A stretch of 31,218 bases of DNA from contig JALTLT010000461.1 in the NCBI GenBank assembly GCA_027001815.1, positions 1 to 31,218 on the forward strand, given 5' to 3'. The translations under genes were made by a program, and so were the position numbers. Shown one piece after another: positions 768-21,332 of this stretch. Positions within the stretch are counted from its first letter, which is position 1. The number at the start of each line of letters is the position of its first letter. The notes beneath the pieces are model-generated. The model ran no database searches. It saw nothing but the letters and a program-made list of their open reading frames with translations, and had not been told where the DNA came from. This DNA comes from Gammaproteobacteria bacterium (GTDB taxonomy: Bacteria; Pseudomonadota; Gammaproteobacteria; JALTLT01).

Positions 768-857
768 CCGTTGAAAAACGCAGTTTTTCGACAGCCTGTG
801 TGCGATGCAGGGAGGCATCGCCATGTTCTAATGATGGTATGTCATTGAACATCCTGA
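764..857 (+). mobile_element. MITE-like element copy 1 (internal-deletion derivative, degenerate left end)
   Basis: ccgttgaaaaacgcagtttttcgacagcctgtg...aatga-N7-tcattgaacatcctg aligns with the first ~85 nt and the right end of the 6449-6609 copy. Left boundary uncertain (764-768). Confidence 0.75.
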
Positions 858-2237
858 TATGGGTATCGCCCGAAGCGCCTTGGGGAGCTCGATAACGAAG
901 TGGGTGGTGCCTTGGGTCGATTCGGCGTGGATCGTGCCCCCGTGCGCCTCGACGATGGACTTGACGATGGCGAGTCCCAGGCCGGTCCCTTCTCCCTGTC
1001 TCGCGCGGTCCACCCGGTAGAAGCGTTCGAAGAGGTGTGTGAGGTGTTCCGGTGGGATCTCCATGCCCTGGTTTGCCACCTCGATACGCACTTTGCCGCC
1101 GTGCTCATCGATGGCCACCTCCACGATGCCGTTTTCACGGGAGTGGCGGATGGCGTTGGATAGCAGGTTGCTCACTGCCCGTCGCAGCATGGTCCGGTGG
1201 CCGGTAAGGCGAGCCGTTCCACGGCGCCCGAGGGTGACACCCTTTTCCTCCGACCACGGCTCATAGTAGTCGAACAGCGCATCCACCTCTTCGGCCAGGT
1301 CCACCTCTTCCAGTTCCGACGGCCTCAGTCCGTTGTCTGCCTTGGCCAGGAACAGCATGTCGTTGATCATCCTCGCAAGGTTTTCGAACTCCTCCATGTT
1401 GGAATAGAGGATTTCCCGGTACTCTTCCGGCGACCGCTCCTGCGACAGCGCCACCTGGGTCTGGGTCATCATGCTGGTGATGGGAGTACGCAGATCGTGT
1501 GCCATGTCGGCGGAGAAATCGGAGAGCCGGCGGAATGCCTCCTCCACCCGCTCGAGCATTTCGTTGAAAGAGTTTGCCAGGTCCCCCAGTTCGTTGGGGA
1601 GGGTCTGCGGATCGAGGCGGAGATCGAGGTCGCTGCCGCTGATGCGCTTCATCTGGGCGATGATCTGATGCAGCGGCGCGTGTCCTTCCCGAACCGCGAA
1701 CCACCCAAGTACTGCGCCGATGCCAGTACCGGTGAGGATCATCCACCACAGAGTGACTCGGAAGTGGGCGAGGAAATGGTCGTGGTAGCCCACCGGCACG
1801 GTGGCAATGGTGGTGTAGGTTTGGCCATTGCCGGAATCGGCGAGGGTGGCTACCAGCACCCGGTAGCGCTCGTCACCATCCGACCAGATCGCGGGGCCGG
1901 GTGATGGCGGCTCGACCAGCGAGTCGATGAGCTTCGAGAAATCGGGATGGTTGCTCGAATAGAGCACGCGGCCCGTGTCGTCCCGCACATGGAGCCATGC
2001 CCCATGGTGTCCCACGAGAAGATCGTCGAAGCGGGGTGCAAGAACACTCACCGCACCTTGCTTGCGAAGCGCGCCCTCCACTGCCTCGATGATACTGCTC
2101 AACTCGGCCTCGTCCTCCTGGGCGAAGTGGAGGCTGATGGAGCGCTCGACCATCCAGCCGAACCCGGTGAAGATGGTCGCCAGCACCAGGCCAAACAGCA
2201 GGGTCAGGCGAACCCTCAGGGAAAGGGGGCTGGTCAT
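828..2237 (-). CDS. copS: Heavy-metal sensor histidine kinase, CusS/CopS family
   Basis: Two TM segments, HAMP region, H-box FSADMAHDLRTP, N-box NLLSNAIRH, G-box GTGLGLAIV. Start placed at ATG 2237 (MTSPLSLRVRL), immediately after the regulator stop. The last ~9 codons lie inside MITE copy 1. Confidence 0.9.
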   Translation of the reverse strand: MTSPLSLRVRLTLLFGLVLATIFTGFGWMVERSISLHFAQEDEAELSSIIEAVEGALRKQGAVSVLAPRFDDLLVGHHGAWLHVRDDTGRVLYSSNHPDFSKLIDSLVEPPSPGPAIWSDGDERYRVLVATLADSGNGQTYTTIATVPVGYHDHFLAHFRVTLWWMILTGTGIGAVLGWFAVREGHAPLHQIIAQMKRISGSDLDLRLDPQTLPNELGDLANSFNEMLERVEEAFRRLSDFSADMAHDLRTPITSMMTQTQVALSQERSPEEYREILYSNMEEFENLARMINDMLFLAKADNGLRPSELEEVDLAEEVDALFDYYEPWSEEKGVTLGRRGTARLTGHRTMLRRAVSNLLSNAIRHSRENGIVEVAIDEHGGKVRIEVANQGMEIPPEHLTHLFERFYRVDRARQGEGTGLGLAIVKSIVEAHGGTIHAESTQGTTHFVIELPKALRAIPISGCSMTYHH

Positions 2238-2238
2238 G

Positions 2239-2928
2239 TCAGGGTGCCGACCCTTCGGGAGCGTCGAGCATGTAGCCCATGCCGCGCACCGTGTGGATGA
2301 GTCGGGGTTCGAAGCCTTCATCCACCTTCACCCGCAGTCGCCGGATGGCGACGTCGATGACGTTGGTATCGCTGTCAAAGTTCATGTCCCAGACCTGGGA
2401 GGCGATCAGTGAACGCGGCAGTACCTCACCCTTGCGCCGCATCAGCAGTTCCAGGAGTGCGAACTCCTTGGCGGTGAGCTTGATCGGCTTTCCGGCGCGG
2501 GTTGCGCGGCGCTTGAGAAGGTCGAGTTCGAGGTCCGCCACCCGCAGTCGGCTGTCGAGGGAGGGTCCGCCCCCGCGCCGGAGGAGAGTGCGAACGCGGG
2601 CGAGCAGCTCGGCGAAGGCGAACGGCTTGACGAGGTAGTCGTCGGCGCCGTGTTCGAGGCCGGTGACGCGGTCTTCCACCGTATCCCGCGCGGTGAGAAA
2701 GAGTACCGGTACGCGGTTGCCTGCCTCCCGCAGAGAGGAGAGGATCTTCAGGCCGTTGATGTCGGGAAGCATGATGTCGAGAATTACCAGGTCGTAGTCG
2801 CCGGTCATGGCGAGATGGTGGCCGTCCAGGCCGTTGCGTGCCAGATCCACCACGAAGCCTGCCTCGGTGAGACCCTGCCTGAGATAGTCCCCGATCTTCT
2901 GTTCGTCTTCCACGATCAGCAGTTTCAT
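2239..2928 (-). CDS. copR: Heavy-metal response regulator, CusR/CopR family (OmpR type)
   Basis: MKLLIVEDE...[10 protein letters not shown]...LTARD...[10 protein letters not shown]...[40 protein letters not shown] precedes ATG 2928. Confidence 0.93.
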
Positions 2929-3035
2929 GCATCGCTCTCCTCGTCGGGAGGTGGTGTGCCGTACCTCCTCACGTTTTGACGACGGCGGCTGTCGGCGTTT
3001 CCCCCCCTGTCGCGCATGAATGATCGGGGGGGGTT

Positions 3036-3064
3036 CATGACGCGATTGTAATCTCCGGGTCATG
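3036..3064. promoter_or_regulatory. CopR/CusR-type binding site (cop box) between divergent copRS and copAB
   Basis: cATGACgcgatTGTAATctccggGTCATg: one mismatch to the TGACA-N4-TGTAAT core, with an outer CATGAC/GTCATG inverted repeat. Position fits the family. Confidence 0.7.
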
Positions 3065-3150
3065 GGTGAGAAAGGTGTCGGTTGCTATCTTCGAGACCAT
3101 ACCGAACCCGGAGCGGGTCCCGGATCGAGATACGCAGGAGGATACCCATC

Positions 3151-4926
3151 ATGAAGAGATCGTATGCCCATGGCATTCAGCCGCCGGATCTGTCGCGCCG
3201 CCGTTTCCTCGGCGGCGTGCTGGCCGGGGGGGCCGCACTGACGCTGCCCCCGCTCTCGTCGCCGGCTCTGGCGGCGCGGGCCGCGGATACCCGGACCGGC
3301 ATGGCGCCGGTGCTGAGCGGTACCGAGTTCCATCTTACCGTGGATCAGACCTGGGTCGATTTCACCGGCACGCCGCGCCCGGCAACGACCATCAACGGCT
3401 CCATTCCGGCGCCTGTCTTGCGCTGGCGGGAGGGGGAAACGGTCACCATCCGGATCACCAATCGGCTGCCGGTCTCCACCTCCATTCACTGGCACGGCAT
3501 TATCCTGCCCTACCGGATGGACGGTGTGCCCGGGGTCAGCTTCCCCGGCATTGCACCCGGTGAGACCTTCGTCTACCGCTTCAAGGTGGGGCAGGCCGGT
3601 ACCTACTGGTATCACTCGCACACCGCCTTCCAGGAGCAGACCGGCATGTATGGTGCGATCATCGTCGAGCCGCGCGGGGGTGAGCGCATCCGTGCCGACC
3701 GGGACTACGTGGTGCAGCTCTCCGACTGGACCGACGAGGATCCGCTGGATGTGTTCGCCAAGCTCAAGAAGCAGAGTGACTATTACAACTTCAATCAGGT
3801 GACGGTGGGAGACTTCTTCCGGGACGTCTCCACCCTCGGCCTTTCGGGTGCCCTGCGCAAGCGCGCCATGTGGAACCGCATGCGCATGAACCCCACCGAC
3901 CTGGCCGACATCTCCGCCTACACCTACACCTACCTCATGAACGGCACGACCCCACGTGGCAACTGGACTGCGCTCTTCCGGACGGGCGACCGGGTCCGGC
4001 TGCGGTTTATCGGAAGCGCGACCCAGAGCTTCTTCGACGTACGGATTCCTGGCCTGAAGATGACGGTCGTGCATGTGGATGGACAGGATATCGAACCGGT
4101 CACCGTCGACGAGTTCCGCATCGGCCCCGGGGAGACCTATGACGTGATCGTCGAGCCCGAAGGAGATACCGCCTATACCATTTTTGCCCAGTCCATGGAT
4201 CGCACCGGGTATGCGCGCGGGACACTCGCCCCAAGGGCGGACATGGAGGCGCCGGTACCCCCACTCGACGAGTCCCAGTGGCTGACCATGCGGGACATGA
4301 TGGGCGCCATGGCGGGCGGGGAGGGCGCGTCGATGAAGGGGATGGCCGGTGCCGGTGGGATGGATCACATGGCGATGGGTTACGGATCCGGGGCGATGAG
4401 CCCGGTACATGCGCGACACGCGAAGACCGAATACGGACCCAGCGTCGACATGCGCGTCGACATGCCGAGGACCAATCTCGACGACCCCGGCATCGGGCTG
4501 CGTGACAACGGCCGTCGGGTGCTCACCTACGCCGACATCCGCACACCTACAGGCCCCCTCGACGCGCGCGAACCGGAGAGAGAGATCGAACTCCATCTCA
4601 CCGGCAACATGGAACGTTACACCTGGTCCCTCGATGGCTTGGAGTTCGGCAAGTCCACACCGATCCACTTCCGGCACGGCGAGCGGCTGCGGGTCATTCT
4701 GCACAACGACACCATGATGACCCATCCGATGCATCTGCACGGGATGTGGAGCGAGCTCGAGGATCCCGAGGGGCGCTTTCTCGCGCGCAGGCACACCATC
4801 AGTGTGCAGCCGGCCCAGCGCATCTCCTTCCGGGTGACGGCGGATGCCCTCGGGCGCTGGGCCTGGCACTGCCATCTCCTCTATCACATGGATGCCGGCA
4901 TGTTTCGTGAAGTGGTCGTGGCCTGA
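3151..4926 (+). CDS. copA: Copper-resistance multicopper oxidase (CopA/PcoA family), Tat-exported
   Basis: Tat motif SRRRFL; copper ligand motifs HWHG, YWYHSH, HPMHLHG, WAWHCHLLYHM; Met-rich insert; AGGAGG RBS before ATG 3151. Confidence 0.95.
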   Translation: MKRSYAHGIQPPDLSRRRFLGGVLAGGAALTLPPLSSPALAARAADTRTGMAPVLSGTEFHLTVDQTWVDFTGTPRPATTINGSIPAPVLRWREGETVTIRITNRLPVSTSIHWHGIILPYRMDGVPGVSFPGIAPGETFVYRFKVGQAGTYWYHSHTAFQEQTGMYGAIIVEPRGGERIRADRDYVVQLSDWTDEDPLDVFAKLKKQSDYYNFNQVTVGDFFRDVSTLGLSGALRKRAMWNRMRMNPTDLADISAYTYTYLMNGTTPRGNWTALFRTGDRVRLRFIGSATQSFFDVRIPGLKMTVVHVDGQDIEPVTVDEFRIGPGETYDVIVEPEGDTAYTIFAQSMDRTGYARGTLAPRADMEAPVPPLDESQWLTMRDMMGAMAGGEGASMKGMAGAGGMDHMAMGYGSGAMSPVHARHAKTEYGPSVDMRVDMPRTNLDDPGIGLRDNGRRVLTYADIRTPTGPLDAREPEREIELHLTGNMERYTWSLDGLEFGKSTPIHFRHGERLRVILHNDTMMTHPMHLHGMWSELEDPEGRFLARRHTISVQPAQRISFRVTADALGRWAWHCHLLYHMDAGMFREVVVA

Positions 4927-4958
4927 GCCACCGCAGCAGAGAGACGGAGAAGAAGACC

Positions 4959-5840
4959 ATGAAAATCACATGCTTCAAGGTGCTTTCGGGAGGGCTCCTG
5001 ATTTTCGGAAGTACCGTGGCCTGGGCCGCCCCGGCAACGGATGGGGCCCCATCACCCATGATGAACGATTCCATACCCATGGCCGAATCCGCGGGGTCCA
5101 TGAAGATGGGGCGAATGCAGGGTGGCTTGCCGCCTCCGGACGCGCGAGACCCTCACGCCTACTCCGACGGATACGACTTCGGAGATGCCGGGCGTCCCCA
5201 CTTTGCCGATGAGCAGCGTTTCGGCTCCCTGCTTGCCAATCGGATGGAGGTCTATGAGCAGGATGGTGCTACCACTGCCGTCTATGACCTCCAGCTCTGG
5301 TACGGCTACGACTATGACCGTCTCGTGGTCAAGGCGGAGGGAGATATCACCGACGGCAAGATCGAGGAGGCCAGTACCGAGCTGCTCTGGTCTCACGCAG
5401 TGGCCTCCTTCTGGGACATGCAGCTTGGTGTGCGCCATGACAGCGGCGAGCTGCCCGATCAGGGCTGGCTGGCGCTCGGGATCCAGGGGTTGGCGCCCTA
5501 CTGGTTCGAGGTCGATACAACTGCCTATTTCGGCGAGGAGAGTCGCACGGCCATCAACGTCGAACTTGAGTATGAACTGCTTTTCACCCAGAAGCTCATC
5601 CTGCAGCCCCGTATCGAGATGAACTGGTACGGAAAGGAAGATCTCGAGCGGGGGATCGGAGAGGGGTTCTCCGATGCAAGCGCCGGCCTGCGGCTCCGCT
5701 ACGAGTTTCGTCGGGAATTTGCCCCATATATCGGAATCGAACGATTCCGGCGCTATGGGAACACCCGGGAGTTGGTGAAGGAATCAGGAGCTGATCCGGA
5801 CGATACGCGGGTAGTGGCGGGAATTCGATTCTGGTTCTGA
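4959..5840 (+). CDS. copB: Outer-membrane copper resistance protein B (CopB/PcoB)
   Basis: Signal peptide, Met-rich N-terminus, PHAYSDG motif, GIQGLAPYWFEVD, LRLRYEFRREFAPYIG, C-terminal GIRFWF; directly downstream of copA. Confidence 0.92.
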   Translation: MKITCFKVLSGGLLIFGSTVAWAAPATDGAPSPMMNDSIPMAESAGSMKMGRMQGGLPPPDARDPHAYSDGYDFGDAGRPHFADEQRFGSLLANRMEVYEQDGATTAVYDLQLWYGYDYDRLVVKAEGDITDGKIEEASTELLWSHAVASFWDMQLGVRHDSGELPDQGWLALGIQGLAPYWFEVDTTAYFGEESRTAINVELEYELLFTQKLILQPRIEMNWYGKEDLERGIGEGFSDASAGLRLRYEFRREFAPYIGIERFRRYGNTRELVKESGADPDDTRVVAGIRFWF

Positions 5841-5894
5841 GAGATTCCGTTTTCTGAACGTTTCAACTGTTGTTTGTCTTGAGGAGGATATTAC

Positions 5895-6401
5895 GTGACG
5901 AAGATTGCTGGCCTCGCCCTTGCCTTGTCGCTTCCGGCCTTTGTTTTTGCCGGTGGCAATCATGTTGGTGGTCACTCTATGAATGGCCATTCCGGGCACG
6001 GAATGGATTCAGTGAAGCATCGGGAGATGATGCGGATTGGAACGAGGGGTGATGCGTCCGAGACAGATCGGATCGTCGAGGTGACAATGGATGACACCAT
6101 GCGATTCCTGCCGGAAACTCTCTCGTTCAGAGAGGGTGAAACCGTGCAGTTCCGCGTCAGGAACAATGGCTCCATTCGCCATGAGATGGTTCTGGGCAAT
6201 CCTTCAATGATTGCGGAGCATGCACGGGGGATGCGCCAGGGCATGGGGATGGATCATGACGATCCCAACATGCTCAGTTTACCGCCGGGTGAGGAGGGCA
6301 CCCTGATCTGGAAGTTTACCAGGGCCGGCAAGTTCACGTTTGCCTGCCTGGTGCCGGGGCATTTCGAGGCTGGGATGAAAGGTGACATCACTGTGGAATA
6401 G
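5895..6401 (+). CDS. Periplasmic cupredoxin (CopI-like copper-tolerance protein)
   Basis: GAGGAGG RBS and GTG start, signal peptide, His-rich N-terminus (HVGGHSMNGHSGH), IRHEMVLG, Met/His patch, C-terminal type-1 Cu loop FACLVPGHFEAGM. Confidence 0.85.
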   Translation: MTKIAGLALALSLPAFVFAGGNHVGGHSMNGHSGHGMDSVKHREMMRIGTRGDASETDRIVEVTMDDTMRFLPETLSFREGETVQFRVRNNGSIRHEMVLGNPSMIAEHARGMRQGMGMDHDDPNMLSLPPGEEGTLIWKFTRAGKFTFACLVPGHFEAGMKGDITVE

Positions 6402-10802: not shown

Positions 10803-13800
10803 ATGAAAGAGATGACACGGATGCGTCTGCCTTTTACCACCCGCGAGATCTACCGGCTCTTCGATCATCGCTACATCAAGCGGGGCAAGGCCTACTTCCG
10901 CGAAGGACGGGTGGAGACGGCCCGCTATCATCCCGGAGCGGGGCGGATCACCGGCGAGGTGCGGGGCTCCGGGAGGCGCCGCTACCGGGTCCATGTGGCG
11001 ATCGGTCACAAGGGCGATGCCATCGATCTCTCCGGCTCCTGCAGCTGCCCGGTGGGGCGCAACTGCAAGCACGTGGTGGCGGTGCTGTTCGAGCTGCTGG
11101 AGGAGGAGCGGCTGGCGCTCCAGACGCCGGCCGGTACGCCACGCGATCCGGTGGAGAGCTGGCTCTTCCGGGTGCGTGACGCCCTGAAAGGGGAGGAGGG
11201 GGGATCCGCGGCGGAAGGGAAGCGGGCCCTCCGGCACGCACTGGTCTACGTGATCGACGAGGTGCCGCGGATGGTGGCCGGACGCCGGGAGCGGAGGCTC
11301 CGGGTGTCGGTGCTGGTGGCCTACCGGCTCAAGAGCGGCGGGTACGGCAACAACCACCCCTTCGGCCTGATGCGCCTGGGCAGTCTCATAAGCCCCCCCG
11401 CCTATCTTCAGCCCGCGGATCGGGACCTGCTGCCGCTGCTCTACGCGCGAGCGATGATGGATCCGGGTCGCCAGCCGTGCCTCGATGGCCCGGGCAGCGG
11501 TGAGCTGTTGCGCAGGATGCTGGAGACCGGACGCTGCCACTGGCAGGAGGTGAACGGCCCCCTTCTGGGAGTGGGCGCGGAACGGGATCTGGAGCCCGAC
11601 TGGGAACCCCCGGACGACGCCGGTTGCCAGGCCCCGCGGCTGCGTGCCGACCCCCCCGTCGACCGGCTCCTGCCGGTGGATCCCCCCTGGTATCTGGACC
11701 TGGAACGGCAGGTGTGCGGCCCCGCCCGCTCCTCCCTGCCGCCCACCCTTCTGCGCCAGTGGATCGAGGCGCCACCCGTGCCCCCCGATGCGGTGGCGCG
11801 CGTCGGCGCGGCCCTCGCCGAGGCCCCCGTGCCGCTGCCGCCACCGGCCACGGTGGAGCTGGTGGAGAAGGAGGCGCCACCCCTCTGCCCGGTCCTGCGG
11901 CTGGGCCGCATCCGGCGTGACCACTGGGGTCAGGGGTGGGAGTACGATCCCACCCCCGGCGGTTGGGGATACGAGTATCGGGCGGTGGCCTGGCTCCACT
12001 TCGAGTACGAGGGTCTGGAGGTCTCCCCCCGCGACGATCGCGACGAGCTGGTGAAGCGGGAGGGGCTGCGCCTACGTCGTTTCGTGCGCGACTTCGATGC
12101 CGAGAAGGCCGCCCTTCAACGCCTGGCCAGGGCCGGTCTGAAGCCGCCTTTCTGGTGCCGCGAGGCGGATCGTCCGCCGGGGATACTGCTGGCCATGGGG
12201 GAGGGGGCGGAAGAGGAGCTCTGGATGCACTTCGTGCTGACGGAGATGGCCAGCCTGGAAGAGGAGGGGTGGCGCGTGGAGATCGAGGCGCCGTTCCCCT
12301 ACCGGATCGCCGAGGTGGATGCCTGGCATGTGGACATCGACGCCACCGGCGACAATCAGTGGTTCGACCTGGAGCTGGGGGTGGAGGTGGAGGGGCGACG
12401 GATCAGCCTTCTGCCGATCCTGGTCCAGGTGCTGGAGACCCATCGGGATCTGCTGGCGGGATGGCGTGATCTCCCCGAAGAACACGCCCTGCTGCTGGAG
12501 CTGGAGGATGGTCGTCGTCTGCGCCTGCCGACCCGGCGCATCGGCCACATCCTCGACGTGCTGGTGGAGTTGTACGACCCCGAGGCGCTGGACGATGCGG
12601 GGAGGCTGCGGGTCCATCGTCTCCGTTCGCGCGAGCTGACGGAGCTGGGCCAGGGGGAGGGTGACCTCCGGTGGCGGGGCAGCGAGCAGCTCCGGGCCGC
12701 GGCCCGGCAGCTCGAGGCGCTCGGCCGGGTGCGTCCGAAGGCCGCCCCGCGCGGTTTTCGCACCCGCCTGCGCCCCTACCAGAAGGAGGGGCTCGGCTGG
12801 CTCCAGTTCCTCCGCCAGCACGGCTTCAACGGTGTGCTGGCCGACGACATGGGACTGGGCAAGACCGTGCAGACCCTGGCCCACGTCCTGCGCGAGAAGC
12901 GGGAGGGGCGCCTCGACCGGCCCGCCCTGGTGGTGGCGCCCACCAGCCTGATGTTCAACTGGCGCCGGGAGGCGGAGCAGTTCACTCCGGAGCTGTCGGT
13001 GCTCACCCTGCACGGTCCGGAGCGCAAGGGGCTCTTCGACGAGATTCCCCGCCACGACCTGGTGCTCACCACCTATCCTCTGCTGCCCCGTGACGAACAG
13101 AGCCTCCGGGCGCACCCCTTCCACCTGCTGATCCTGGATGAGGCACAGCAGATCAAGAATCCCAGGGCCAAGGCGGGGCAGGTGGTCCGATCACTCGAGG
13201 CGCGCCACCGCCTCTGCCTCACCGGCACCCCCCTCGAGAACCATCTGGGGGAGCTGTGGTCGCTGTTCGACTTTCTCATGCCGGGTCTGCTCGGCAGCGA
13301 GCGGCAGTTCCGGCGCCTCTTCCGCACGCCGGTGGAGAAGCATGGCGACCAGGAGCGGGCGCAGCGGCTGGCGCGTCGCGTGGCCCCCTTCCTGCTGCGG
13401 CGCGACAAGGAGCAGGTGGCCACCGACCTGCCCCCCAAGACCGAGATCGTGCGCAGTGTTCCCCTGAAGGGGAAGCAGCGTGATCTCTACGAGACCATCC
13501 GCCTCGCCATGCATGGCAAGGTGCGCAAGGCGATCGCCGCCCGCGGTCTCGCCCGCAGCCAGATCGTGATCCTGGAGGCACTGCTCAAGCTGCGCCAGGT
13601 GTGCTGCGATCCCCGCCTGCTGAAGATGGAGGCGGCGCGCAAGGTGAGGGGCTCGGCCAAGCTCGATCTGCTCATGGGGCTGTTGCCGGAGCTGCTGGAG
13701 GAGGGGCGGCGGATCCTGCTCTTCAGCCAGTTCACCTCCATGCTCGCCCTGATCGAGGAGGAGCTGGCGGCCCGCCGCATCGGCTACCTGAAGCTGACCG

Positions 13801-14162
13801 GCAAGACCCGCGACCGGGAGACCCCCATCCGCCGATTCCAGGAGGGGGAGATCCCCCTCTTTCTCATCAGCCTCAAGGCGGGTGGCACCGGTCTCAACCT
13901 GACCACCGCCGATACCGTTATCCACTACGATCCCTGGTGGAACCCGGCGGTGGAGAACCAGGCCACCGACCGCGCCCACCGTATCGGCCAGGAGAAGCCG
14001 GTCTTCGTTTACAGGCTCCTCACCGAGGGAACCGTCGAGGAGCGGATCCAGGCCCTCCAGGCCCGCAAGCGGGAGCTGGCCGAAGGGCTCTTCGACCGCG
14101 CCGGTCGCGGTCGTCTGCCCGGCCCCGACGAGCTGGAGGCGCTCTTCGAACCGCTGGGGTGA
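10803..14162 (+). CDS. SWIM zinc finger plus SNF2-family (DEAQ) helicase/ATPase
   Basis: SWIM CSCPVGRNCKH; SNF2 motifs LADDMGLGKT, DEAQ, TGTPLEN, LFSQFT, SLKAGGTGLNLT, QATDRAHRIGQ. Start could be 10803, 10812 or 10821. Confidence 0.9.
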   Translation: MKEMTRMRLPFTTREIYRLFDHRYIKRGKAYFREGRVETARYHPGAGRITGEVRGSGRRRYRVHVAIGHKGDAIDLSGSCSCPVGRNCKHVVAVLFELLEEERLALQTPAGTPRDPVESWLFRVRDALKGEEGGSAAEGKRALRHALVYVIDEVPRMVAGRRERRLRVSVLVAYRLKSGGYGNNHPFGLMRLGSLISPPAYLQPADRDLLPLLYARAMMDPGRQPCLDGPGSGELLRRMLETGRCHWQEVNGPLLGVGAERDLEPDWEPPDDAGCQAPRLRADPPVDRLLPVDPPWYLDLERQVCGPARSSLPPTLLRQWIEAPPVPPDAVARVGAALAEAPVPLPPPATVELVEKEAPPLCPVLRLGRIRRDHWGQGWEYDPTPGGWGYEYRAVAWLHFEYEGLEVSPRDDRDELVKREGLRLRRFVRDFDAEKAALQRLARAGLKPPFWCREADRPPGILLAMGEGAEEELWMHFVLTEMASLEEEGWRVEIEAPFPYRIAEVDAWHVDIDATGDNQWFDLELGVEVEGRRISLLPILVQVLETHRDLLAGWRDLPEEHALLLELEDGRRLRLPTRRIGHILDVLVELYDPEALDDAGRLRVHRLRSRELTELGQGEGDLRWRGSEQLRAAARQLEALGRVRPKAAPRGFRTRLRPYQKEGLGWLQFLRQHGFNGVLADDMGLGKTVQTLAHVLREKREGRLDRPALVVAPTSLMFNWRREAEQFTPELSVLTLHGPERKGLFDEIPRHDLVLTTYPLLPRDEQSLRAHPFHLLILDEAQQIKNPRAKAGQVVRSLEARHRLCLTGTPLENHLGELWSLFDFLMPGLLGSERQFRRLFRTPVEKHGDQERAQRLARRVAPFLLRRDKEQVATDLPPKTEIVRSVPLKGKQRDLYETIRLAMHGKVRKAIAARGLARSQIVILEALLKLRQVCCDPRLLKMEAARKVRGSAKLDLLMGLLPELLEEGRRILLFSQFTSMLALIEEELAARRIGYLKLTGKTRDRETPIRRFQEGEIPLFLISLKAGGTGLNLTTADTVIHYDPWWNPAVENQATDRAHRIGQEKPVFVYRLLTEGTVEERIQALQARKRELAEGLFDRAGRGRLPGPDELEALFEPLG

Positions 14163-14222
14163 ACCGAACCGGCGCTTCCTGAACTTTTCCTCCCCCACCC
14201 TGTCTCACCATCCGACGCCCGA

Positions 14223-14259
14223 TTGACAACGGTTCTCGTTTCCGCGTACCGTTGGGGTA
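14223..14259 (+). promoter_or_regulatory. Sigma70 promoter with an overlapping palindromic operator candidate for the uORF-cusCBA operon
   Basis: TTGACA (14223-28), 18-nt spacer, TACCGT (14247-52). TACC-gttgg-GGTA at 14247-14259 covers the -10. A second inverted repeat caacggt/accgttg lies at 14227-33 / 14248-54. Confidence 0.6.
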
Positions 14260-14267
14260 CGGATCAC

Positions 14268-14690
14268 ATGGGAGAGAGCGGCTTGTTCCAGGCCCTGCGC
14301 AAAGCCTATCGACGCAACGCCCTGCTGGCGGTTCCGCTGCTGGCGGCGGCGTGGCTGGTGCTGGCGTGCCAGAGCTGTCTGGCGGCGGTGGCCGGCGACG
14401 GGGTGGAGGGAGCGGCCGGAGCGGAGCATCACTGCTGTCCCGACGCCGTCCAGACGGCCCATCATGAAGGCTGCGACTGTGGTGCCCAGTGCCTCTCCGC
14501 CCTGCCCGATTCGGTCCAGCCTCCTGCCCTGGCGAAGAGCGTGGACGAGAAGCCGGCTCCCGCCCTTGTGGCGCTGGTGGAGTACCGGCAGCCCGACTAC
14601 CCGGTGGTGTGGCAGATCCCGCCGCCCCGCGCCGAGGCCTCTCCCGGCGATCCCCTTCTTCTCGCCCGCAAGTGTCTCCTTCTGCTTTGA
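14268..14690 (+). CDS. Cys/His-rich upstream membrane-anchored protein (DUF2946-like / leader-type ORF preceding heavy-metal RND operons)
   Basis: 140 aa from ATG 14268: hydrophobic segment, CQSC, HHCC, HHEGCDCGAQC, Pro-rich PPP, C-terminal RKCLLLL; first ORF after the promoter. Family assignment is by pattern only. Confidence 0.65.
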   Translation: MGESGLFQALRKAYRRNALLAVPLLAAAWLVLACQSCLAAVAGDGVEGAAGAEHHCCPDAVQTAHHEGCDCGAQCLSALPDSVQPPALAKSVDEKPAPALVALVEYRQPDYPVVWQIPPPRAEASPGDPLLLARKCLLLL

Positions 14691-14847
14691 CAGACCCCCT
14701 CCCTTCCGCGGAGTGGTGTCTGATCCCCCGTTTCTGCGCCGTTTTCTGACCGGCTGAGTCCGGTTCCGGCATCCGACGTCACTCCGCTCGTGTTCCACGG
14801 GCGCCCGGACCCCTTCCGGGTATTCCAGAGAGAACCGGAGTGACGAG
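14691..14847 (+). promoter_or_regulatory. Structured intercistronic RNA with mutually exclusive helices covering the cusC RBS
   Basis: 14777-14786 is the perfect 10-nt complement of 14836-14845 (contains GGAG). 14708-14720 pairs with 14775-14787 (13 bp, 2 G-U). 14691-14722 forms a hairpin directly after the uORF stop. Confidence 0.6.
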
Positions 14848-16110
14848 ATGTCCACACGACACTGGATCCCCCTCCTGCTGCTGCTGCTGGCAGCGGGTAC
14901 CACACAGGCTGCCACCCCGGCCCCGTTGACCCTCGACGAGGCGGAGCGACTGGCGGTGGAACAGGACGCGCTCAGCGAGCGCAGCGCCCGCCTGGCCGAG
15001 GCCTTCGAAGAGGAGGCGGTGGCCGACGAGCAGCTTCCCGACCCGCGCCTCAAGCTGGGCCTGGCCAACTTCCCTACCGACACCTTCAGCTTCACCCAGG
15101 AGCCGATGACCCAGCTCGTGGTGGGGGTACAGCAGCGCTTTCCACGCGGTGAAAGCCGCCGAATCCGCGGCGAGCGGCGCCAGGTGCAGGCCGCCGAGCA
15201 GCGGGCCCGGCTGGCCGAACGCCGTCGCAAGGTGCGCCAGGAGACCCGCAAGGCGTGGTGGGAACTGGTCTACTGGCTGCGGGCCGAGAAGGTGCTGGAG
15301 GCCAACCGCGGCCTCTTCCGGCAGATGGTGGAGGTGACCGAGTACCAGTACGGGGCCGGCCGCCACAACCAGCAGGACGTGATCCGTGCCCAGCTCGAGC
15401 TCTCCCGGCTGGAGGACCGGCTGGCGAAGGTGCGCCAGGAGCAGGATCGTGCCCGGGCGGTGCTGGCGCGCTGGATCGGCGACGCCGCGGCGCGCCGGGC
15501 CCTGGCCGACGACCATCCGGACGAGGTCTCCCTGCCGGGCCTGGAGGTGCTGGTGGAGCGTCTCCCCGCACACCCTCTCCTGAAGGCGGAGCAGGCGCGC
15601 ATCGAGGCGGCCCGCAAGGGGGTGGAGCTGGCCGAGCAGGCCTACAGGCCGGGCTGGATGCTGGATGTCAGCTACGGCCTTCGCGGGGGCGAGAACATGG
15701 ACGGCAGCACCCGCTCCGATTTCCTCTCCGCGGCGGTGATGGTGGACCTTCCCCTCTTCACCGCCAACCGCCAGGACCGCAAGGTGACCGCCGCCCACCG
15801 GCGGGTATCGGCGGCCCAGAGCGTACGGGACGACCGGTTGCGGGAGCTGAAGCGGATGCTCGAGAGCCAGTACGCCTCCTGGCTGCGCATCAACGAGCGT
15901 CTGGTCCTCTACCGGGAACGGCTGGTGCCGGAGACGGCGCAGAACGCCATCGCCTCGCTTGAGGCCTACCAGAACGACAACGCCGACTTCACCACCCTGT
16001 TGCGTGCCCGCATCACCGAACTCAACACCCATCTCGACGTGGAGCGCCTGCACCGTGACCGCGGGCGGGTGCTGGCCGTCATCGAATACCTCGCAGGAGA
16101 AGAACAATGA
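14848..16110 (+). CDS. cusC: TolC-family outer-membrane factor of a heavy-metal RND efflux system (CusC-like)
   Basis: Signal peptide, [19 protein letters not shown], coiled-coil repeats, [21 protein letters not shown]; ATGA overlap with the next gene. Confidence 0.85.
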
Positions 16111-17699
16111 TTCGCAGATCCACTCTCTCTCTCGCCGTCGCCCTGACGCTCGTCTCCACCGCGGCCCTGCCCCTGCCCGCCCGTGCCGCCGAGGCGGCCG
16201 GGGAGACCGCCCTGGAGCATGCGCAGAAGCATCTCGACCCCAAGTACGTCTGCCCCATGCATCCGCAGATCATCCGTGACGAGCCCGGGAACTGTCCCAT
16301 CTGCGGCATGGATCTGGTTCCCGTGGAGCAGGAGGAGGCCGACGAGCCGAAGGAGCGCAAGATCCTCTACTACCGCCACCCCCACAAGCCCGACATCATC
16401 TCGCCGGTGCCGCGCAAGGACGAGATGGGGATGGACTTCGTGCCGGTCTACGACGACGGTGGCGGCGCCTCGGTGAAGATCACCCCGGCGGTGATCAACA
16501 ATCTGGGAGTGCGTACCGCCGAGGCGGAGCGGGGGCGCCTGTGGCGCCGCATCGATACGGTCGGCTTCGTCGACTACGACGAGAATCTCGTCTCCCACAT
16601 CCACCTGCGCACCGACGGCTGGATCGAGAAGCTGCACGTCAAGTACGACGGTGAGCGGGTGAAGAAGGGGCAGGTGCTGTTCGAGGTCTACTCGCCCAAG
16701 CTGGTCAACGCCCAGGAGGAGTATCTCAACGCCCGCCGTGCCGGGGGCCGGCTGGTGAAGGCCTCCGCCGAGCGACTGCGGGCGCTCGGGGTCTCCGACG
16801 ACCAGATCGACGAACTGGCGCGCAGCGGCCGGGTGCTGCAGCGGGTCAAGATCCACGCCCCCCAGGATGGCATCGTGGCCAGGCTCAAGGTCCGTCAGGG
16901 GATGTACGTCAAGCCCATGAACGAGGTGATGAGCATCGCCGACCTCTCCCGCGTCTGGGTGATGGCGGAGGTGTTCGAGAAGCAGGTGGACTGGGTGCAG
17001 GAGGGGCAGAGTGCCGATGTCCGTCTCGACTACCTGCCGGGGGAGGAGCTCGAGGGGCGGGTGGAGTTCATCTATCCGGAACTCGATCCCAGGACCCGCA
17101 CCCTGCGCGTGCGGCTCAGCTTCCCCAACCCGGAGATGCGCCTCAAGCCCAACATGTACGCCAGTGTCGCCATCTACGGTGGGCCGAAGGATGACGTGGT
17201 CTTCATCCCGCGCGAGGCGCTGATCCGCACCGGCCGGGAGAGCCGGGTGATCCTGGCGGTGGGTGAGGGGCGTTTCCAGCCGCGCGAGGTGGTGCCCGGC
17301 ATCGAGTCCGGGGACTACGTGGAGATCCGCGCCGGTCTCGAGGGGGGCGAGAAGGTGGTCACCTCCGGCCAGTTCCTGATCGACTCCGAGGCGAGCCTCA
17401 AGGCGAGCCTGCTGCGCATGCAGGGGGCGGCCGGAGAGGAGGCGTCCGCGGCGCCGGAGGTGGTGGCCACCGGCACCGGCGAGCTGAAGGCGGTGGGGGA
17501 GGGCAGTGTCAATCTCGCCCACGACCCCATCGAGGCGCTGGGCTGGCCGGCCATGACCATGGACTTCGAACTGGCCGAGGGGGCCTCGGCGGAGGGCATC
17601 GCGCCCGGAACCGCCGTGGAGTTCGACCTCATCGAGGGCAGCGACGGCTATCTGATCTCGGCCATTCGCCCGCGGGACGGCGAGGGGGGTGAGCAATGA
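16107..17699 (+). CDS. cusB: Heavy-metal RND periplasmic adaptor (CusB) with N-terminal metal-binding repeats and a C-terminal CusF domain
   Basis: [20 protein letters not shown], second repeat [21 protein letters not shown], core GWIEKL / YSP.LV.AQEEYL / IYPELD..TRTLRVR, C-terminal [16 protein letters not shown] (CusF H/W/M/M site). Confidence 0.92.
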
Positions 17700-20600
17700 T
17701 CGCGCGCGTCATCGAATGGTCGCTGGCCAACCGCTTCCTGGTGCTGCTGCTGACGGCGATCCTCACCGGCTGGGGGATCTGGTCGGTGAAGAACACGCCG
17801 CTGGATGCGATCCCCGACCTCTCCGACGTCCAGGTGATCATCAAGACCTCCTACCCGGGGCAGGCGCCCCGGGTGGTGGAGGACCAGGTCACCTATCCTC
17901 TGACCACCGCCATGCTCTCCGTGCCCGGGGCGGTGAACGTGCGGGGCTACTCCTTCTTCGGTGACTCCTACGTCTACATCATCTTCGAGGACGGTACCGA
18001 CATCTACTGGGCCCGTTCGCGGGTGCTGGAGTACCTCTCCCAGGTGGCGCCCAACCTGCCGCCCCAGGCGCGCTCGGCCCTCGGGCCCGACGCCACCGGG
18101 GTGGGCTGGGTCTACGAGTATGCGCTGGTGGATCGCGAGAACCGCCACGACCTCGCCCAGCTCCGCTCCCTGCAGGACTGGTTCCTCAAGTACGAGCTGC
18201 AGACGGTGCCCGGGGTCTCCGAGGTGGCCACCATCGGTGGCATGGTCAAGCAGTACCAGGTGGTGCTCGACCCCAACCGGCTGCGCGCCTACGGCATCCC
18301 GCTGATGAAGGTGAAGCAGGCGATCCAGCGCGCCAACAGCGAGACCGGCGGCTCGGTGATCGAAATGGCCGAGGCCGAATACATGGTGCGCGCCACCGGC
18401 TACATCGACGATCCGGAGGATCTGCGCCGGATCCCCCTGGGGGTCAACCGGCAGGGGACGCCGATCCTGCTGCGTGACGTGGCGGAGATCCGTCTCGGTC
18501 CGCAGATGCGGCGTGGCATCGCCGACCTGGACGGGGAAGGAGAGGTGGTCGGCGGCATCATCGTCATGCGCTTCGGCGAGAACGCCCTGACCACCATCGA
18601 GGCGGTCAAGGAGAAGCTGAAGGAGCTGCAGCGCAGCCTGCCGGAGGGGGTGGAGATCGTCGAGACCTACGACCGCTCCTCCCTCATCATGCGCGCGGTG
18701 GAGACCCTGGAGGGGAAGCTGGTGGAGGAGTTCCTGGTGGTGGCGCTGGTCTGCGCCGTCTTCCTCTTCCACCTGCGTTCGGCGCTGGTGGCGATCGTCA
18801 GCCTGCCGATCGGTATCCTGGTCGCCTTCATCGTCATGCACGGCCAGGGGATCAATGCCAACATCATGTCGCTGGGTGGCATCGCCATCGCCATCGGCGC
18901 CATGGTGGACGCGGCGATCGTCATGATCGAGAACCTCCACAAGCACATGGAGCGGGAGGCGATCACCAACGAGAACCGCTGGCGGATCATCGCCGAATCG
19001 ACCAAGGAGGTGGGGCCGCCGCTCTTCTTCTCGCTGCTGATCATCACTCTCAGCTTCCTGCCGGTCTTCACCCTGGAGGCGCAGGAGGGACGGCTCTTCG
19101 CCCCCCTCGCCTTCACCAAGACCTACGCCATGGCGGCGGCGGCCGGGTTGTCGGTGACCCTGGTGCCGGTGCTGATGGGCTACTTCATCCGTGGCCACAT
19201 CACCCCGGAGCACAAGAACCCGGTCAACCGCCTGCTGATGCTCCTCTACAAACCGGTGATCAACCTGGTGCTGCGGGCGCCGAAGACGGTGCTGGCGGTC
19301 TGCGTGGCGCTGGTGATCGTCGGCTTCTGGCCCATCGACAAGATCGGCTCGGAGTTCATGCCCGATCTGGACGAGGGGGACCTGATGTACATGCCCACCA
19401 CCTTTCCGGGGGTCTCGGTGGGCAAGGCGCGTCAGCTCCTGCAGCAGACCGACCGGCTGATCCGCACCGTGCCGGAGGTGAAGCGGGTGTTCGGCAAGAT
19501 CGGTCGTGCCGAGACCGCCACCGACCCGGCGCCCCTGACCATGATCGAGACCACCATCCAGCTCAAGCCGCGCGACCAGTGGCGGGAGGGGATGACCCTG
19601 GAGAAGCTGATCGAGGAGCTCAACGAGCTGATCAAGTTCCCCGGTCTCACCAACGCCTGGGTGATGCCCATCAAGACCCGCATCGACATGCTCGCCACCG
19701 GTATCAAGACGCCGGTGGGGATCAAGGTATCGGGGCCCGACCTGTCGGTGATCCAGGAGATCGGCAAGCGGATCGAGGAGGTGATCCAGCAGGTGCCGGG
19801 CACCCTCTCGGCCTACTCGGAGCGGGTCGCCGGCGGACGCTACGTGACGGTGGACATCGACCGGGTGGCCGCCTCCCGCTTCGGCCTCAACATCGCCGAC
19901 GTGCAGATGGTGATCTCCAGCGCGGTGGGCGGCATGCAGGTGGCCCAGTCGGTGGAAGGGCTGGAGCGCTATCCCATCAACCTGCGCTACCCGCGCGAGG
20001 TGCGCGACTCCCTCGAGGATCTGCGCAACCTGCCCATCGTCACCCCCTCGGGGGCACAGATCTCCCTGGGCGAGGTGGCCGACGTGCGGGTCGAGGACGG
20101 GCCGGCGGTGATCAAGAGCGAGAACGCCCGCCCCAACGGCTGGACCTTCGTCGACATCCGCGGTCGTGACCTGGGCTCCTACGTGGCCGAGGCGCAGAGG
20201 GTAGTGGCCGAGCAGGTGGAGCTGCCCCCCGGCTACTCCATCGCCTGGTCGGGGCAGTACGAGTACATGGTGCGGGCCAAGGAACGGCTCTCGGTGGTGG
20301 TGCCGCTGACCCTGGTGATCATCGTCCTGCTGCTCTACCTGAACTTCCGCAACGTGGTGGAGGTGGGGATCATCATGGGTACCCTGCCGCTGGCCCTGGT
20401 GGGGGGTGTCTGGCTCCTCTACCTGCTCGACTTCAACATGTCGGTGGCGGTAGGGGTCGGCTTCATCGCCCTGGCCGGCGTAGCGGTGGAGATCGGGGTG
20501 GTGATGCTGGTCTATCTCAACCAGGCCTACCGCCGCAAGCGCCAGGAGATGGGCGATGCGTTCACCATCGAGCACCTGCGCGAGGCGGTGATCGAGGGGG

Positions 20601-20815
20601 CGCTGATGCGCGTGCGGCCGATCATGATGACGGTGGCGGCGATCATCGCCGGCCTGCTGCCGATCATGCTCGGCACCGGCACCGGCTCGGAAGTGATGCA
20701 GCGCATCGCCGCGCCGATGGTGGGCGGCATGGTCAGCGCGACCATCCTCACCCTCATCGTCATTCCTTCCGTCTTCCTGGTCTGGAAGGGAGTGGAGCTG
20801 AAGAGGAGGGGTTGA
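17696..20815 (+). CDS. cusA: Cu(I)/Ag(I) RND efflux permease, CusA/SilA family
   Basis: [84 protein letters not shown]; 1039 aa; ATGA coupling to cusB. Confidence 0.96.
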
Positions 20816-20823
20816 CCTCCGGA

Positions 20824-20863
20824 GGCGGCCCGCGTCCCGCCGGGACGTGGGCCGCCCCTTTTT
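20824..20863 (+). terminator. Intrinsic terminator after cusA
   Basis: 15-bp stem ggcggcccgcgtccc / gggacgtgggccgcc (1 G-U), 3-nt loop, followed by ccttttt. Confidence 0.7.
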
Positions 20864-20893
20864 CGGGGCCGACGGCCCCAGAGGAGCGGAATC

Positions 20894-21208
20894 ATGAACT
20901 ACCGAAAGATCACGGCCATCTTCCCCTCCATCCTCCTCGAGGAGATGGAGCGGGCGCTGGAGCGGAAGGGGGTGCCCGGCATGACCGTCACCCGGGTGCG
21001 GGGGCTGGGCGACTACCGCAACTTCTACACCGAGGACAACCTGGTGGACTGTGCGCGCATCGAGATCTTCACCACCGTGGAGGAGGCGCCGCGGATCACC
21101 GCGGTGATCCGCGAGATGGTGGAGGAGAAGGTGGGTGGCGGGGCGCTGGTGGCGGTGCTGCCGGTGGAGGAACTGCTCCACCTGCACGGCGGAGAGGCAG
21201 TCGGCTGA
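20894..21208 (+). CDS. PII-family (GlnB-like) protein associated with the metal efflux operon
   Basis: 104 aa, KITAIF....LEE...AL...GVPGMTVTRVRGLG...RIEIF..VEE....I......GGG.LVAVLPVEE; RBS GAGGAG. Short divergent T-loop, so not canonical GlnB/GlnK. Confidence 0.85.
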   Translation: MNYRKITAIFPSILLEEMERALERKGVPGMTVTRVRGLGDYRNFYTEDNLVDCARIEIFTTVEEAPRITAVIREMVEEKVGGGALVAVLPVEELLHLHGGEAVG

Positions 21209-21227
21209 CGCGCTGCTCGGGCGGCCC

Positions 21228-21256
21228 CTTGAAACGGCCTCCCGTCGCCCCCACCT
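21228..21256 (+). promoter_or_regulatory. Sigma32 (RpoH) heat-shock promoter of htpG
   Basis: CTTGAAA (21228-34), N14, CCCCACCT (21249-56); fits the CTTGAAA-N13/14-CCCCATnT consensus, upstream of a known RpoH-regulon gene. Confidence 0.8.
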
Positions 21257-21332
21257 GACGGTCAGGTTTCACCCCGGAGCGGGCGGAAGTGTCGTGCCCG
21301 TCCCGGCAAACGAGAGAGGAGCGCACTGACCC

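Follow-up and report, generated by a model that had tools for sequence, protein, structure and literature searches.

Pumps of the CusCBA type are textbook examples of transcriptional control by CusRS. The locus described here raises the question whether the synthesis of such a pump is also set at the level of RNA, and whether the ribosome finishing a small upstream gene takes part in it. The DNA is a stretch of 31,218 nucleotides (nt) of contig JALTLT010000461.1, assembly GCA_027001815.1, Gammaproteobacteria bacterium (JALTLT01); this whole stretch is called the window. A first-pass annotation had proposed a three-way RNA switch between the stop codon of an upstream open reading frame (uORF) and the cusC ribosome-binding site (RBS), as a candidate new translational attenuator. 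The frame does end at the TGA at 14688-90, it is however a 140-aa gene and no short leader. We read the 157-nt spacer between this TGA and the cusC ATG (14848) as the RNA half of a CutF-like device, a leader gene followed by a masked RBS, that would set cusCBA translation and be gated by the ribosome; for this reading we estimate a probability of about 0.5. The elements of the leader gene and the spacer, with SD for Shine-Dalgarno sequence and p for base-pairing probability, are the following:

14268 to 14690, forward strand: leader gene, 140 amino acids (aa), ATG 14268 to TGA 14690, from the reading frame and an alignment with the class B leaders described below
14619 to 14627, forward strand: PPP codons, about 20 codons upstream of the stop, located by alignment with SPPR/RAPPR of relatives
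14656 to 14690, forward strand: CU-rich final codons and stop, complementary to 14824-14840 (duplex -12.2 to -16.9 kcal/mol)
14691 to 14722, forward strand: gate hairpin, from folding (-14.1 kcal/mol, p 0.99)
14691 to 14703, forward strand: segment 1, CU-rich, directly follows the TGA, partner of segment 2 in the gate
14708 to 14722, forward strand: segment 2, a decoy copy of the SD strand that contains GGAG, pairs with segment 1
14748 to 14765, forward strand: small ACCGG/CCGGU hairpin, from folding (-7.6 kcal/mol in isolation)
14768 to 14787, forward strand: segment 3, anti-SD/anti-AUG strand, pairs with segment 4 or segment 2
14786 to 14821, forward strand: two local hairpins (14786-14802 and 14803-14821) inside the OFF helix, in minimum free energy (MFE) and centroid folds
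14832 to 14852, forward strand: segment 4, the cusC RBS, read directly, with SD GGAG 14837-40 and AUG 14848-50

The pairings named by the first-pass annotation are all present in the sequence, with the TGA at 14688-90, the GGAG at 14837-40, the ATG at 14848 and the helices at their positions. The masking (OFF) helix joins 14777-85 to 14837-45 (p ~1.0); positions 14777-86 are the exact reverse complement of 14836-45 over 10 bp. An extension that had been overlooked pairs 14768-73 with 14847-52, therefore the cusC AUG is buried as well. The alternative (ON) helix joins 14708-20 to 14775-87 over 13 bp including two G-U pairs; the 7-mer CGGAGTG is found in segment 2 as well as in the SD strand. 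Duplex energies (ViennaRNA) were -19.2 kcal/mol for the OFF helix, -22.8 kcal/mol for the ON helix and -14.3 kcal/mol for the second anti-SD (14759-66 with 14832-39) of the first-pass annotation. The latter was rejected as a working element: its complementarity is exact over 8 bp, yet p was ~0 in all ensembles. Without a ribosome, the MFE structures and ensembles of several sequence contexts agreed on gate p 0.99, OFF p ~1.0 and ON p ~0, so that the proposed masking of the cusC RBS holds in unconstrained folds, and a stem-loop masking the SD, as in the CutF-type RNA device, is predicted at cusC (p ~1.0). In silico, SD and AUG of cusC (segment 4) are locked by segment 3, and segment 3 has an equally good alternative partner in the decoy segment 2, itself held by segment 1.

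The fold is unusual for the composition of the spacer (z-score -2.4; 2 of 200 shuffles equally good). Among 1000 dinucleotide shuffles 1.5 % matched the OFF duplex and 8 % the ON duplex, none matched both. The 10-mer has no further exact copy in the window and its five one-mismatch matches represent the chance level, thus it is not a dispersed repeat; a second copy of the spacer was not found elsewhere in the source genome. A scan of 13500-15500 against Rfam yielded nothing better than a chance-level E of 1.3, and a promoter/terminator scan detected neither a sigma-70 site nor a terminator-like site. A trp-type transcription attenuator or a known riboswitch was discarded on these results, there being no intrinsic terminator and no Rfam match.

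A ribosome on the leader stop was simulated by forcing 14675-14703, the block named by the first-pass annotation, to remain single-stranded; segment 1 falls within the footprint of a terminating ribosome. Under this constraint the MFE structure flipped from the OFF to the ON helix, and the cost of opening 14834-14862 decreased from 15.6-17.6 to 10.2-14.9 kcal/mol depending on the context, a relief of about 3-6 kcal/mol. With the control block (start -14 to +15) the cost fell from 13.3 to 10.2 kcal/mol, a relief of 3.1 kcal/mol reached by 2 % of 150 shuffles. Scanning the ribosome position gave relief only with the P site at 14679-14691, that is on the last codons or the stop, and none from control blocks inside the spacer. 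The masking is structurally tied to the upstream stop, as the first-pass annotation had claimed. A stall at the PPP codons was considered as the opening event and dismissed, with a relief of -3.2 to +0.9 kcal/mol in the same scan; the CutF-type arrangement, a ribosome at the arrest site reaching the anti-SD, is not present in the window. In folds of the growing transcript the ON helix formed first (p 0.98 with the 3' end at 14790-14800), and the gate and the OFF helix replaced it only after the SD had been transcribed. With a ribosome on the stop, ON and OFF were about equal at 14846 and OFF prevailed later. Since ON forms first and OFF dominates at equilibrium, the model plausibly describes a kinetic, metastable switch of moderate amplitude, not a clean thermodynamic one.

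The leader protein carries at its N-terminus RKAYRR followed, as read by eye, by a 16-residue hydrophobic run and a c-region of small residues; this putative signal or anchor segment ends in CQSC. Further downstream are HHCC, HHEGCDCGAQC and PPPR, and the C-terminal tail before the stop is GDPLLLARKCLLLL. Size and context agree with the description of CutF-like genes (PMC9973294): 140 aa, a 157-nt spacer, then cusC, cusB and cusA. The Cys/His motifs are likewise there, as HHCC and HHEGCDCGAQC align with the HxCxHCPP and C..C columns of 28 relatives. Another feature of CutF-like proteins, a PP among the 15 C-terminal residues, is absent from the leader, which has only single prolines in that part; its PPP occupies residues 118-120 of 140, with the last Pro 20 residues before the C-terminus. 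Searches of the leader against Pfam (E<=0.01) and NCBIfam gave no match, and a six-frame search of the genome with PF11162 (DUF2946) missed the reading frame. A language-model search in the ESM Atlas returned nearest clusters of which some are named DUF2946 (score 0.96). Membership of the leader in DUF2946 was rejected, this being its sole link against three negative profile searches. By its architecture the leader agrees with the CutF-like proteins in most features, the PP near the C-terminus and PF11162 being the two exceptions, and it would work like a CutF-type device; assignment to DUF2946 is not supported.

More distant loci were gathered through similarity to CusC. In almost all of about 70 loci inspected, a Cys/His reading frame of 115-160 aa was located directly upstream of the cusC homologue on the same strand. 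Two types of leader tail were distinguished: (F/L/Y)RPP followed by 1-6 residues in class A, and ...PPLxxLxC(V/I)(Y/F)Lx or YR(I/V)LLI in class B. Typical motifs of class B are WLNLxxQPCAMA, HxCPHCPP and the tail ...PPLxxLxCVYLx-stop (L017-L096, e.g., L080:805-1349 and L075:1894-2422). The tail is conserved as a peptide, because its codons vary synonymously. The leader of the window aligns with class B from end to end, its IPPPR matching the SPPR/RAPPR position of the relatives. A class B profile retrieved 919 representative clusters (50 % identity) at E<=0.001. No Pfam or NCBIfam model covers the class B members tested, PF11162 did not match the ten representatives searched with it, and the class A leaders also missed PF11162 at significance. 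A comparison of class A with class B by hhalign was not significant.

In class B the gap from stop to ATG typically measures 50-58 nt, and the 12 nt from the last base of the stop codon onward can pair with the SD strand around a small intervening hairpin. Over 19 class B loci, 83 % of the cells in a structure count were paired, against 37-50 % with slid partners; the covariation score was 0.31, against 0.07-0.17, and was reached by none of 500 shuffles. One pairing position alternates between U-A, A-U and G-U. An alignment-free test of 60 loci pointed in the same direction: the stop region (-15 to +15) bound its own SD with -14.4 kcal/mol and the SDs of other loci with -10.2 kcal/mol (permutation p<1/5000), and the cognate SD ranked first in 13 of the 60. 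Reading-frame segments located 30-120 nt further upstream bound the SD less well (-9.5 to -10.8 kcal/mol). A ribosome on the stop relieved the RBS across the family by 5.8 kcal/mol on average, compared with 1.3 kcal/mol in shuffles (Wilcoxon 1.6e-9, for loci that are not independent). A covarying pairing of stop region and SD in 60 homologous loci thus speaks for the reading of the first-pass annotation.

The two classes differ in the position of the anti-SD. In class A the median distance between its start and the second Pro codon of RPP is 2 nt, which would place it within an arrested ribosome, as in the geometry of CutF; the last codons together with the stop constitute the anti-SD, e.g., CTCCATAGC-TGA versus GCTATGGAG, with covarying variants (L028:2245-2350, L045, L031, L034, L071, L092). 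In class B it begins at a median of 30 nt past the last PP and covers -4 to +15 around the stop. At L016, the closest relative of the window locus, the first nine bases after the stop pair with the SD across 133 nt, with a relief of 14.2 kcal/mol. In the window the direct pairing of stop region and SD survives weakly and the local anti-SD, segment 3, is the dominant lock. The pairing of 14656-14690 with 14824-14840 is possibly a remnant of the direct anti-SD of the family; it appears in the enforced-ON fold without a ribosome. The small ACCGG/CCGGU hairpin resembles the inner (A)GCCG..CGGUUU hairpin of class B spacers, a homology suggested by likeness alone. In two loci (L073:2210-2330 and L072:2300-2455) the cusC start was probably assigned too far downstream; an in-frame upstream ATG restores in both a gap of about 55 nt and the geometry of anti-SD and SD. 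A covariance model built from the 19 class B spacers (R1) had no match in the window, where its best hit (E 9.8) lay at another place, nor in any of 151 genomes of the class; the model is too short and specific, and the window spacer is no sequence homologue of the 55-nt element.

The locus is also represented by 10 other contigs with an identical leader, in which the spacer differs at most at position 14723 (A/G), an unpaired base immediately 3' of the gate. Two haplotypes can be distinguished, with 61 substitutions across 13000-16700. They differ at 4.5 % of the four-fold sites in the flanking genes, at 6 of 105 positions in the upstream intergenic region and at 1 of 157 positions in the spacer (P=0.006). 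An in-frame CTG insertion or deletion at 14875-14877 affects one Leu of the poly-Leu run in the CusC signal peptide (420 versus 419 aa). The source genome is a metagenome-assembled genome of 496 contigs from hydrothermal-vent metagenomes, and a 98 %-identical CusC is labelled Thiotrichales. Sampled relatives of the genome were at closest of the same class; homologues of the leader were not found in 41 genomes (G000 and 40 genomes of the same class).

The transcription unit around the device comprises the following further features:

14224 to 14259, forward strand: promoter-like TTGACA, 18-nt spacer, TACCGT, with an overlapping palindrome GTACC-N5-GGTAC, read directly
14848 to 16110, forward strand: cusC-like outer-membrane factor (OEP; PF02321, E 1.5e-35)
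16107 to 17699, forward strand: cusB-like adaptor, with HMBD at the N-terminus and a fused CusF domain at the C-terminus, from a domain search
17696 to 20815, forward strand: cusA-like resistance-nodulation-cell division (RND) pump (PF00873, E 5.7e-242)

The TTGACA...TACCGT element is, from its sequence, the likely start of the leader-cusCBA transcript and possibly a regulated promoter; a simple sigma-70 scan gave no score to 14224-14259. Overlaps of the type ATGA join cusC to cusB and cusB to cusA, as the first-pass annotation had noted. With the CusF domain fused to the CusB adaptor, the periplasmic chaperone is part of the adaptor. A further reading frame at 20812-21258 (148 aa, TTG start) overlaps the cusA stop by 4 nt; it had no match in Pfam or NCBIfam and may or may not be a fourth gene of the operon. 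A second copper cluster at 828-6401 encodes a multicopper oxidase, CopB and a cupredoxin. A CusS-type sensor kinase and a response regulator (828-3063) belong to this copAB cluster and lie on the minus strand, divergent from the genes for multicopper oxidase, CopB and cupredoxin; no two-component system or other cusRS-type regulator adjoins the cusCBA operon, this pair being the nearest. The gene upstream of the leader encodes an SNF2 helicase in the window and a LysR-type regulator in the closest relative (L016:184-1155).

Taken together as a mechanism, the 2:3 (ON) helix would form first during transcription, and after synthesis of the SD the RNA would relax to the 1:2 and 3:4 pairings (OFF). 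A ribosome on the last codons or the stop of the leader would cover segment 1, remove most of the drive from ON to OFF and lower the opening cost of the cusC RBS. Translation of cusC would then occur roughly in proportion to the number of ribosomes finishing the leader, and cusB and cusA would follow through the ATGA overlaps. By analogy with CutF and CruR, the leader may be exported co-translationally and its exported Cys/His cluster may bind periplasmic Cu or Ag. A metal that changes the number or the dwell time of ribosomes at the stop would render the device metal-responsive. The link between stop codon and RBS is real in the family, plausible in the window and modest in amplitude; its dependence on metal is drawn from the analogy.

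Two copper-responsive leader systems are the closest precedents. CutF of R. capsulatus is exported co-translationally, and when copper stalls the ribosome at the C-terminal Pro motif, the stem-loop masking the cutO SD melts (PMC9973294; 10.1101/2025.02.05.636593). CutF-like genes most often precede OEP/CusC-type genes, and SilD, CusD, CopL and CzcI are named among them; beyond CutF, the intergenic length alone was analysed (PMC9973294). As in CutF-cutO, the first gene of a copper-detoxification operon in the window codes for a small, putatively exported protein with Cys motifs, a stem-loop in the intergenic region covers the SD of the next gene, and a ribosome near the leader end is predicted to melt this stem-loop. 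In contrast to CutF, the leader of the window lacks PF11162 and has its Pro run further from the C-terminus, at a distance of 20-22 residues where CutF-like proteins have it among the last 15; its anti-SD is located away from the stall site, the connection running in four segments through a hairpin after the stop and a decoy SD; the spacer measures 157 nt, the target is an RND pump, and the device is a predicted one. CruR (Bp2923) of B. pertussis is encoded by a leader reading frame of the DUF2946 family, and sensing of copper by the nascent chain relieves a RAPP arrest and leads to Rho termination (PMC9426467). Similar to the window, a Cys-motif leader frame with a Pro-containing arrest motif heads a copper operon, the intergenic regions are of comparable length (162 versus 157 nt), and a polarity in which copper relieves the arrest would suit a read-out at the stop codon. 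CruR differs in that it acts by Rho termination, represses an importer, belongs to DUF2946 and carries RAPP close to the C-terminus; an SD-masking relay is not described for it. The device is hence not the new kind of attenuator that the first-pass annotation had suspected, CutF (PMC9973294; 10.1101/2025.02.05.636593) and CruR (PMC9426467) having been published already, it is a more elaborate variant of these copper-sensing leader switches. New are the covariation evidence for cus operons, the unannotated class B family with a geometry linked to termination, and the four-segment relay. Our literature searches found no paper that tests an RNA mechanism for cusCBA.

The arrangement of the segments is familiar from attenuators of the ermC/cat type: at rest 1:2 and 3:4 are paired, and a ribosome covering segment 1 lets 2 pair with 3, which frees segment 4. 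The ermC leader is a peptide of 19 aa, and the drug-bound ribosome stalls inside it. The window has the same mutually exclusive pairings 1:2/3:4 and 2:3 with the SD in segment 4, with energies of -14.1 (1:2), -19.2 (3:4) and -22.8 kcal/mol (2:3), and its MFE structure switches when segment 1 is blocked. Unlike in ermC, segment 1 follows the stop of a 140-aa gene for a putatively exported protein in place of a short peptide with an internal stall, and the cue would be extracytoplasmic metal. SecM-secA, MifM-yidC2 and VemP-secDF2 sense translocation force with defined arrest peptides beside a stem-loop. What the window would have in common with them is an exported or inserted nascent chain whose ribosome, depending on where it stands, exposes or hides a downstream SD; they differ in that arrest within the leader of the window is presumed. 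In the coat-replicase system of phage MS2, translation of the upstream gene opens a long-range helix that hides the downstream RBS, and translational coupling of this type is the minimal reading of the class A and class B loci, the partner here being a dedicated small metal-motif gene with a conserved tail and the link in the window an indirect one. CusD/SilD, CzcI and CopL are comparable by description as small genes ahead of cus, sil, czc and cop operons; the CutF/CruR literature cited here reports no RNA mechanism for them.

A number of results weigh against a switch gated by the ribosome, most of them from the equilibrium folds. The first-pass annotation had predicted that a ribosome dwelling at the last codons frees the SD. 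The direction came out as predicted, with the MFE structure changing to ON and the opening cost falling by 3-6 kcal/mol, but the probability of an unpaired SD rose merely from 0.001 to 0.01 and OFF continued to dominate. With 14675-14703 single-stranded the ensemble stayed 77 % OFF and 22 % ON, and across 3' ends the share of OFF in the ribosome-bound ensemble varied from 45 to 99 %. The OFF state with bound ribosome (-65.3 kcal/mol) was favoured over the enforced ON state (-63.7 kcal/mol) by 1.6 kcal/mol, and even in the enforced ON state about 9 kcal/mol were still needed to open the RBS. With the longest stretch of flanking sequence, relief amounted to only 2.7-3.0 kcal/mol and 14 kcal/mol of masking were left. 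The PPP codons are about 60 nt away from the gate, so that a CutF-style stall there would leave the gate closed. Several other loci with long gaps showed little predicted relief. The population data are of limited help: divergence between the haplotypes is low in the leader gene and in cusB as well, hence the invariance of the spacer is only moderate evidence of constraint, and recombination or a sweep could be behind it. The relay itself shows no covariation, the orthologous spacers being near-identical, and the next relative (L016, CusC 59 % identical) has a spacer that cannot be aligned. A search for RNA sequencing runs returned none that contains this DNA.

Another explanation, which we regard as unlikely on balance, is a constitutive device, in which the 3:4 helix merely damps cusC translation or stabilises or processes the mRNA with no link to the leader, and the extra complementarity of segments 1 and 2 arose incidentally when the SD strand was duplicated locally within a GC-rich spacer. 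It would account for the dominance of the OFF helix at equilibrium even with a ribosome on the stop, for the CGGAGTG common to segment 2 and the SD strand, for an ON duplex whose energy 8 % of the shuffles matched, and for a relay without covariation among near-identical orthologous spacers. It does not account for the joint complementarity absent from 1000 shuffles, for a relief specific to ribosome positions at the stop, for a gate hairpin that starts exactly at the first base after the stop, for the coupling of stop region and SD in the whole family, or for the conservation of the spacer within the population. Rho-dependent termination as the main control, as in CruR, appears improbable. 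Here the C-rich end of the leader and start of the spacer would load Rho, arrest or release of the leader ribosome would decide, and the helices would be secondary. The C/G ratio in 60-nt windows reaches 2.0-2.7 over 14610-14700, a rut-like value, against about 0.9-1.3 in the flanks; the 157-nt spacer is close in length to the 162-nt cruR-bfrG region (PMC9973294); the PPPR of the leader aligns with SPPR/RAPPR of relatives; CruR itself uses Rho termination (PMC9426467); and the direct pairing of stop and SD is often missing in loci with long gaps. The gate hairpin, however, sequesters part of the C-rich strand, and the helix masking SD and AUG is strong and non-random regardless of Rho; both modes of control can coexist. 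Very improbable is an origin at the level of DNA, with the inverted and direct copies of CGGAGTGACG as operators of a transcription factor or remnants of a mobile element. One word does occur in three copies within 140 bp, and the operon has no cusRS-type regulator gene next to it (nearest 828-3063). Against this, the exact word is absent elsewhere in the window with one-mismatch matches at chance level, the genome contains the spacer only once, distances of 59-68 bp separate the copies of the word and the SD itself is among these, the G-U pairs of the ON helix are sensible only in RNA, and relatives retain the complementarity despite sequence change.

Beyond the ribosome-gated device in the window, we tentatively suggest that the class B leaders represent a distinct, undescribed metal-sensing branch that is read out at termination instead of at the arrest site, with cusCBA translated when the anti-SD at the stop site melts. 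Periplasmic Cu or Ag bound by the exported Cys/His cluster might relieve an upstream RAPP-like pause, with the polarity of CruR, or alter termination on the near-invariant ...PPLxxLxCVYLx-stop tail; more frequent or longer occupancy of the stop codon would then melt the anti-SD placed there. In the window the signal would be relayed by the four ermC-like segments with their decoy SD.

On this evidence the mRNA of CusCBA-type pumps, in the window and in at least 60 related loci, additionally ties the first gene of the pump to the stop codon of a dedicated small metal-motif gene. If functional, the device would bring RND efflux pumps under the CutF/CruR paradigm (2022-2025), which so far covers an oxidase and an importer, and add a large unannotated family of leaders with a different geometry, characterised by a post-stop anti-SD and a conserved tail. 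Natural versions with two and with four strands would then be at hand for dissecting how the position of a ribosome is converted into exposure of an RBS. The reading frames of 115-160 aa and their spacers are better annotated as regulatory modules than as 'hypothetical proteins'. Should the tentative view of the class B branch be true, hundreds of gammaproteobacterial lineages would possess a post-transcriptional, regulator-free metal switch for their RND pumps.

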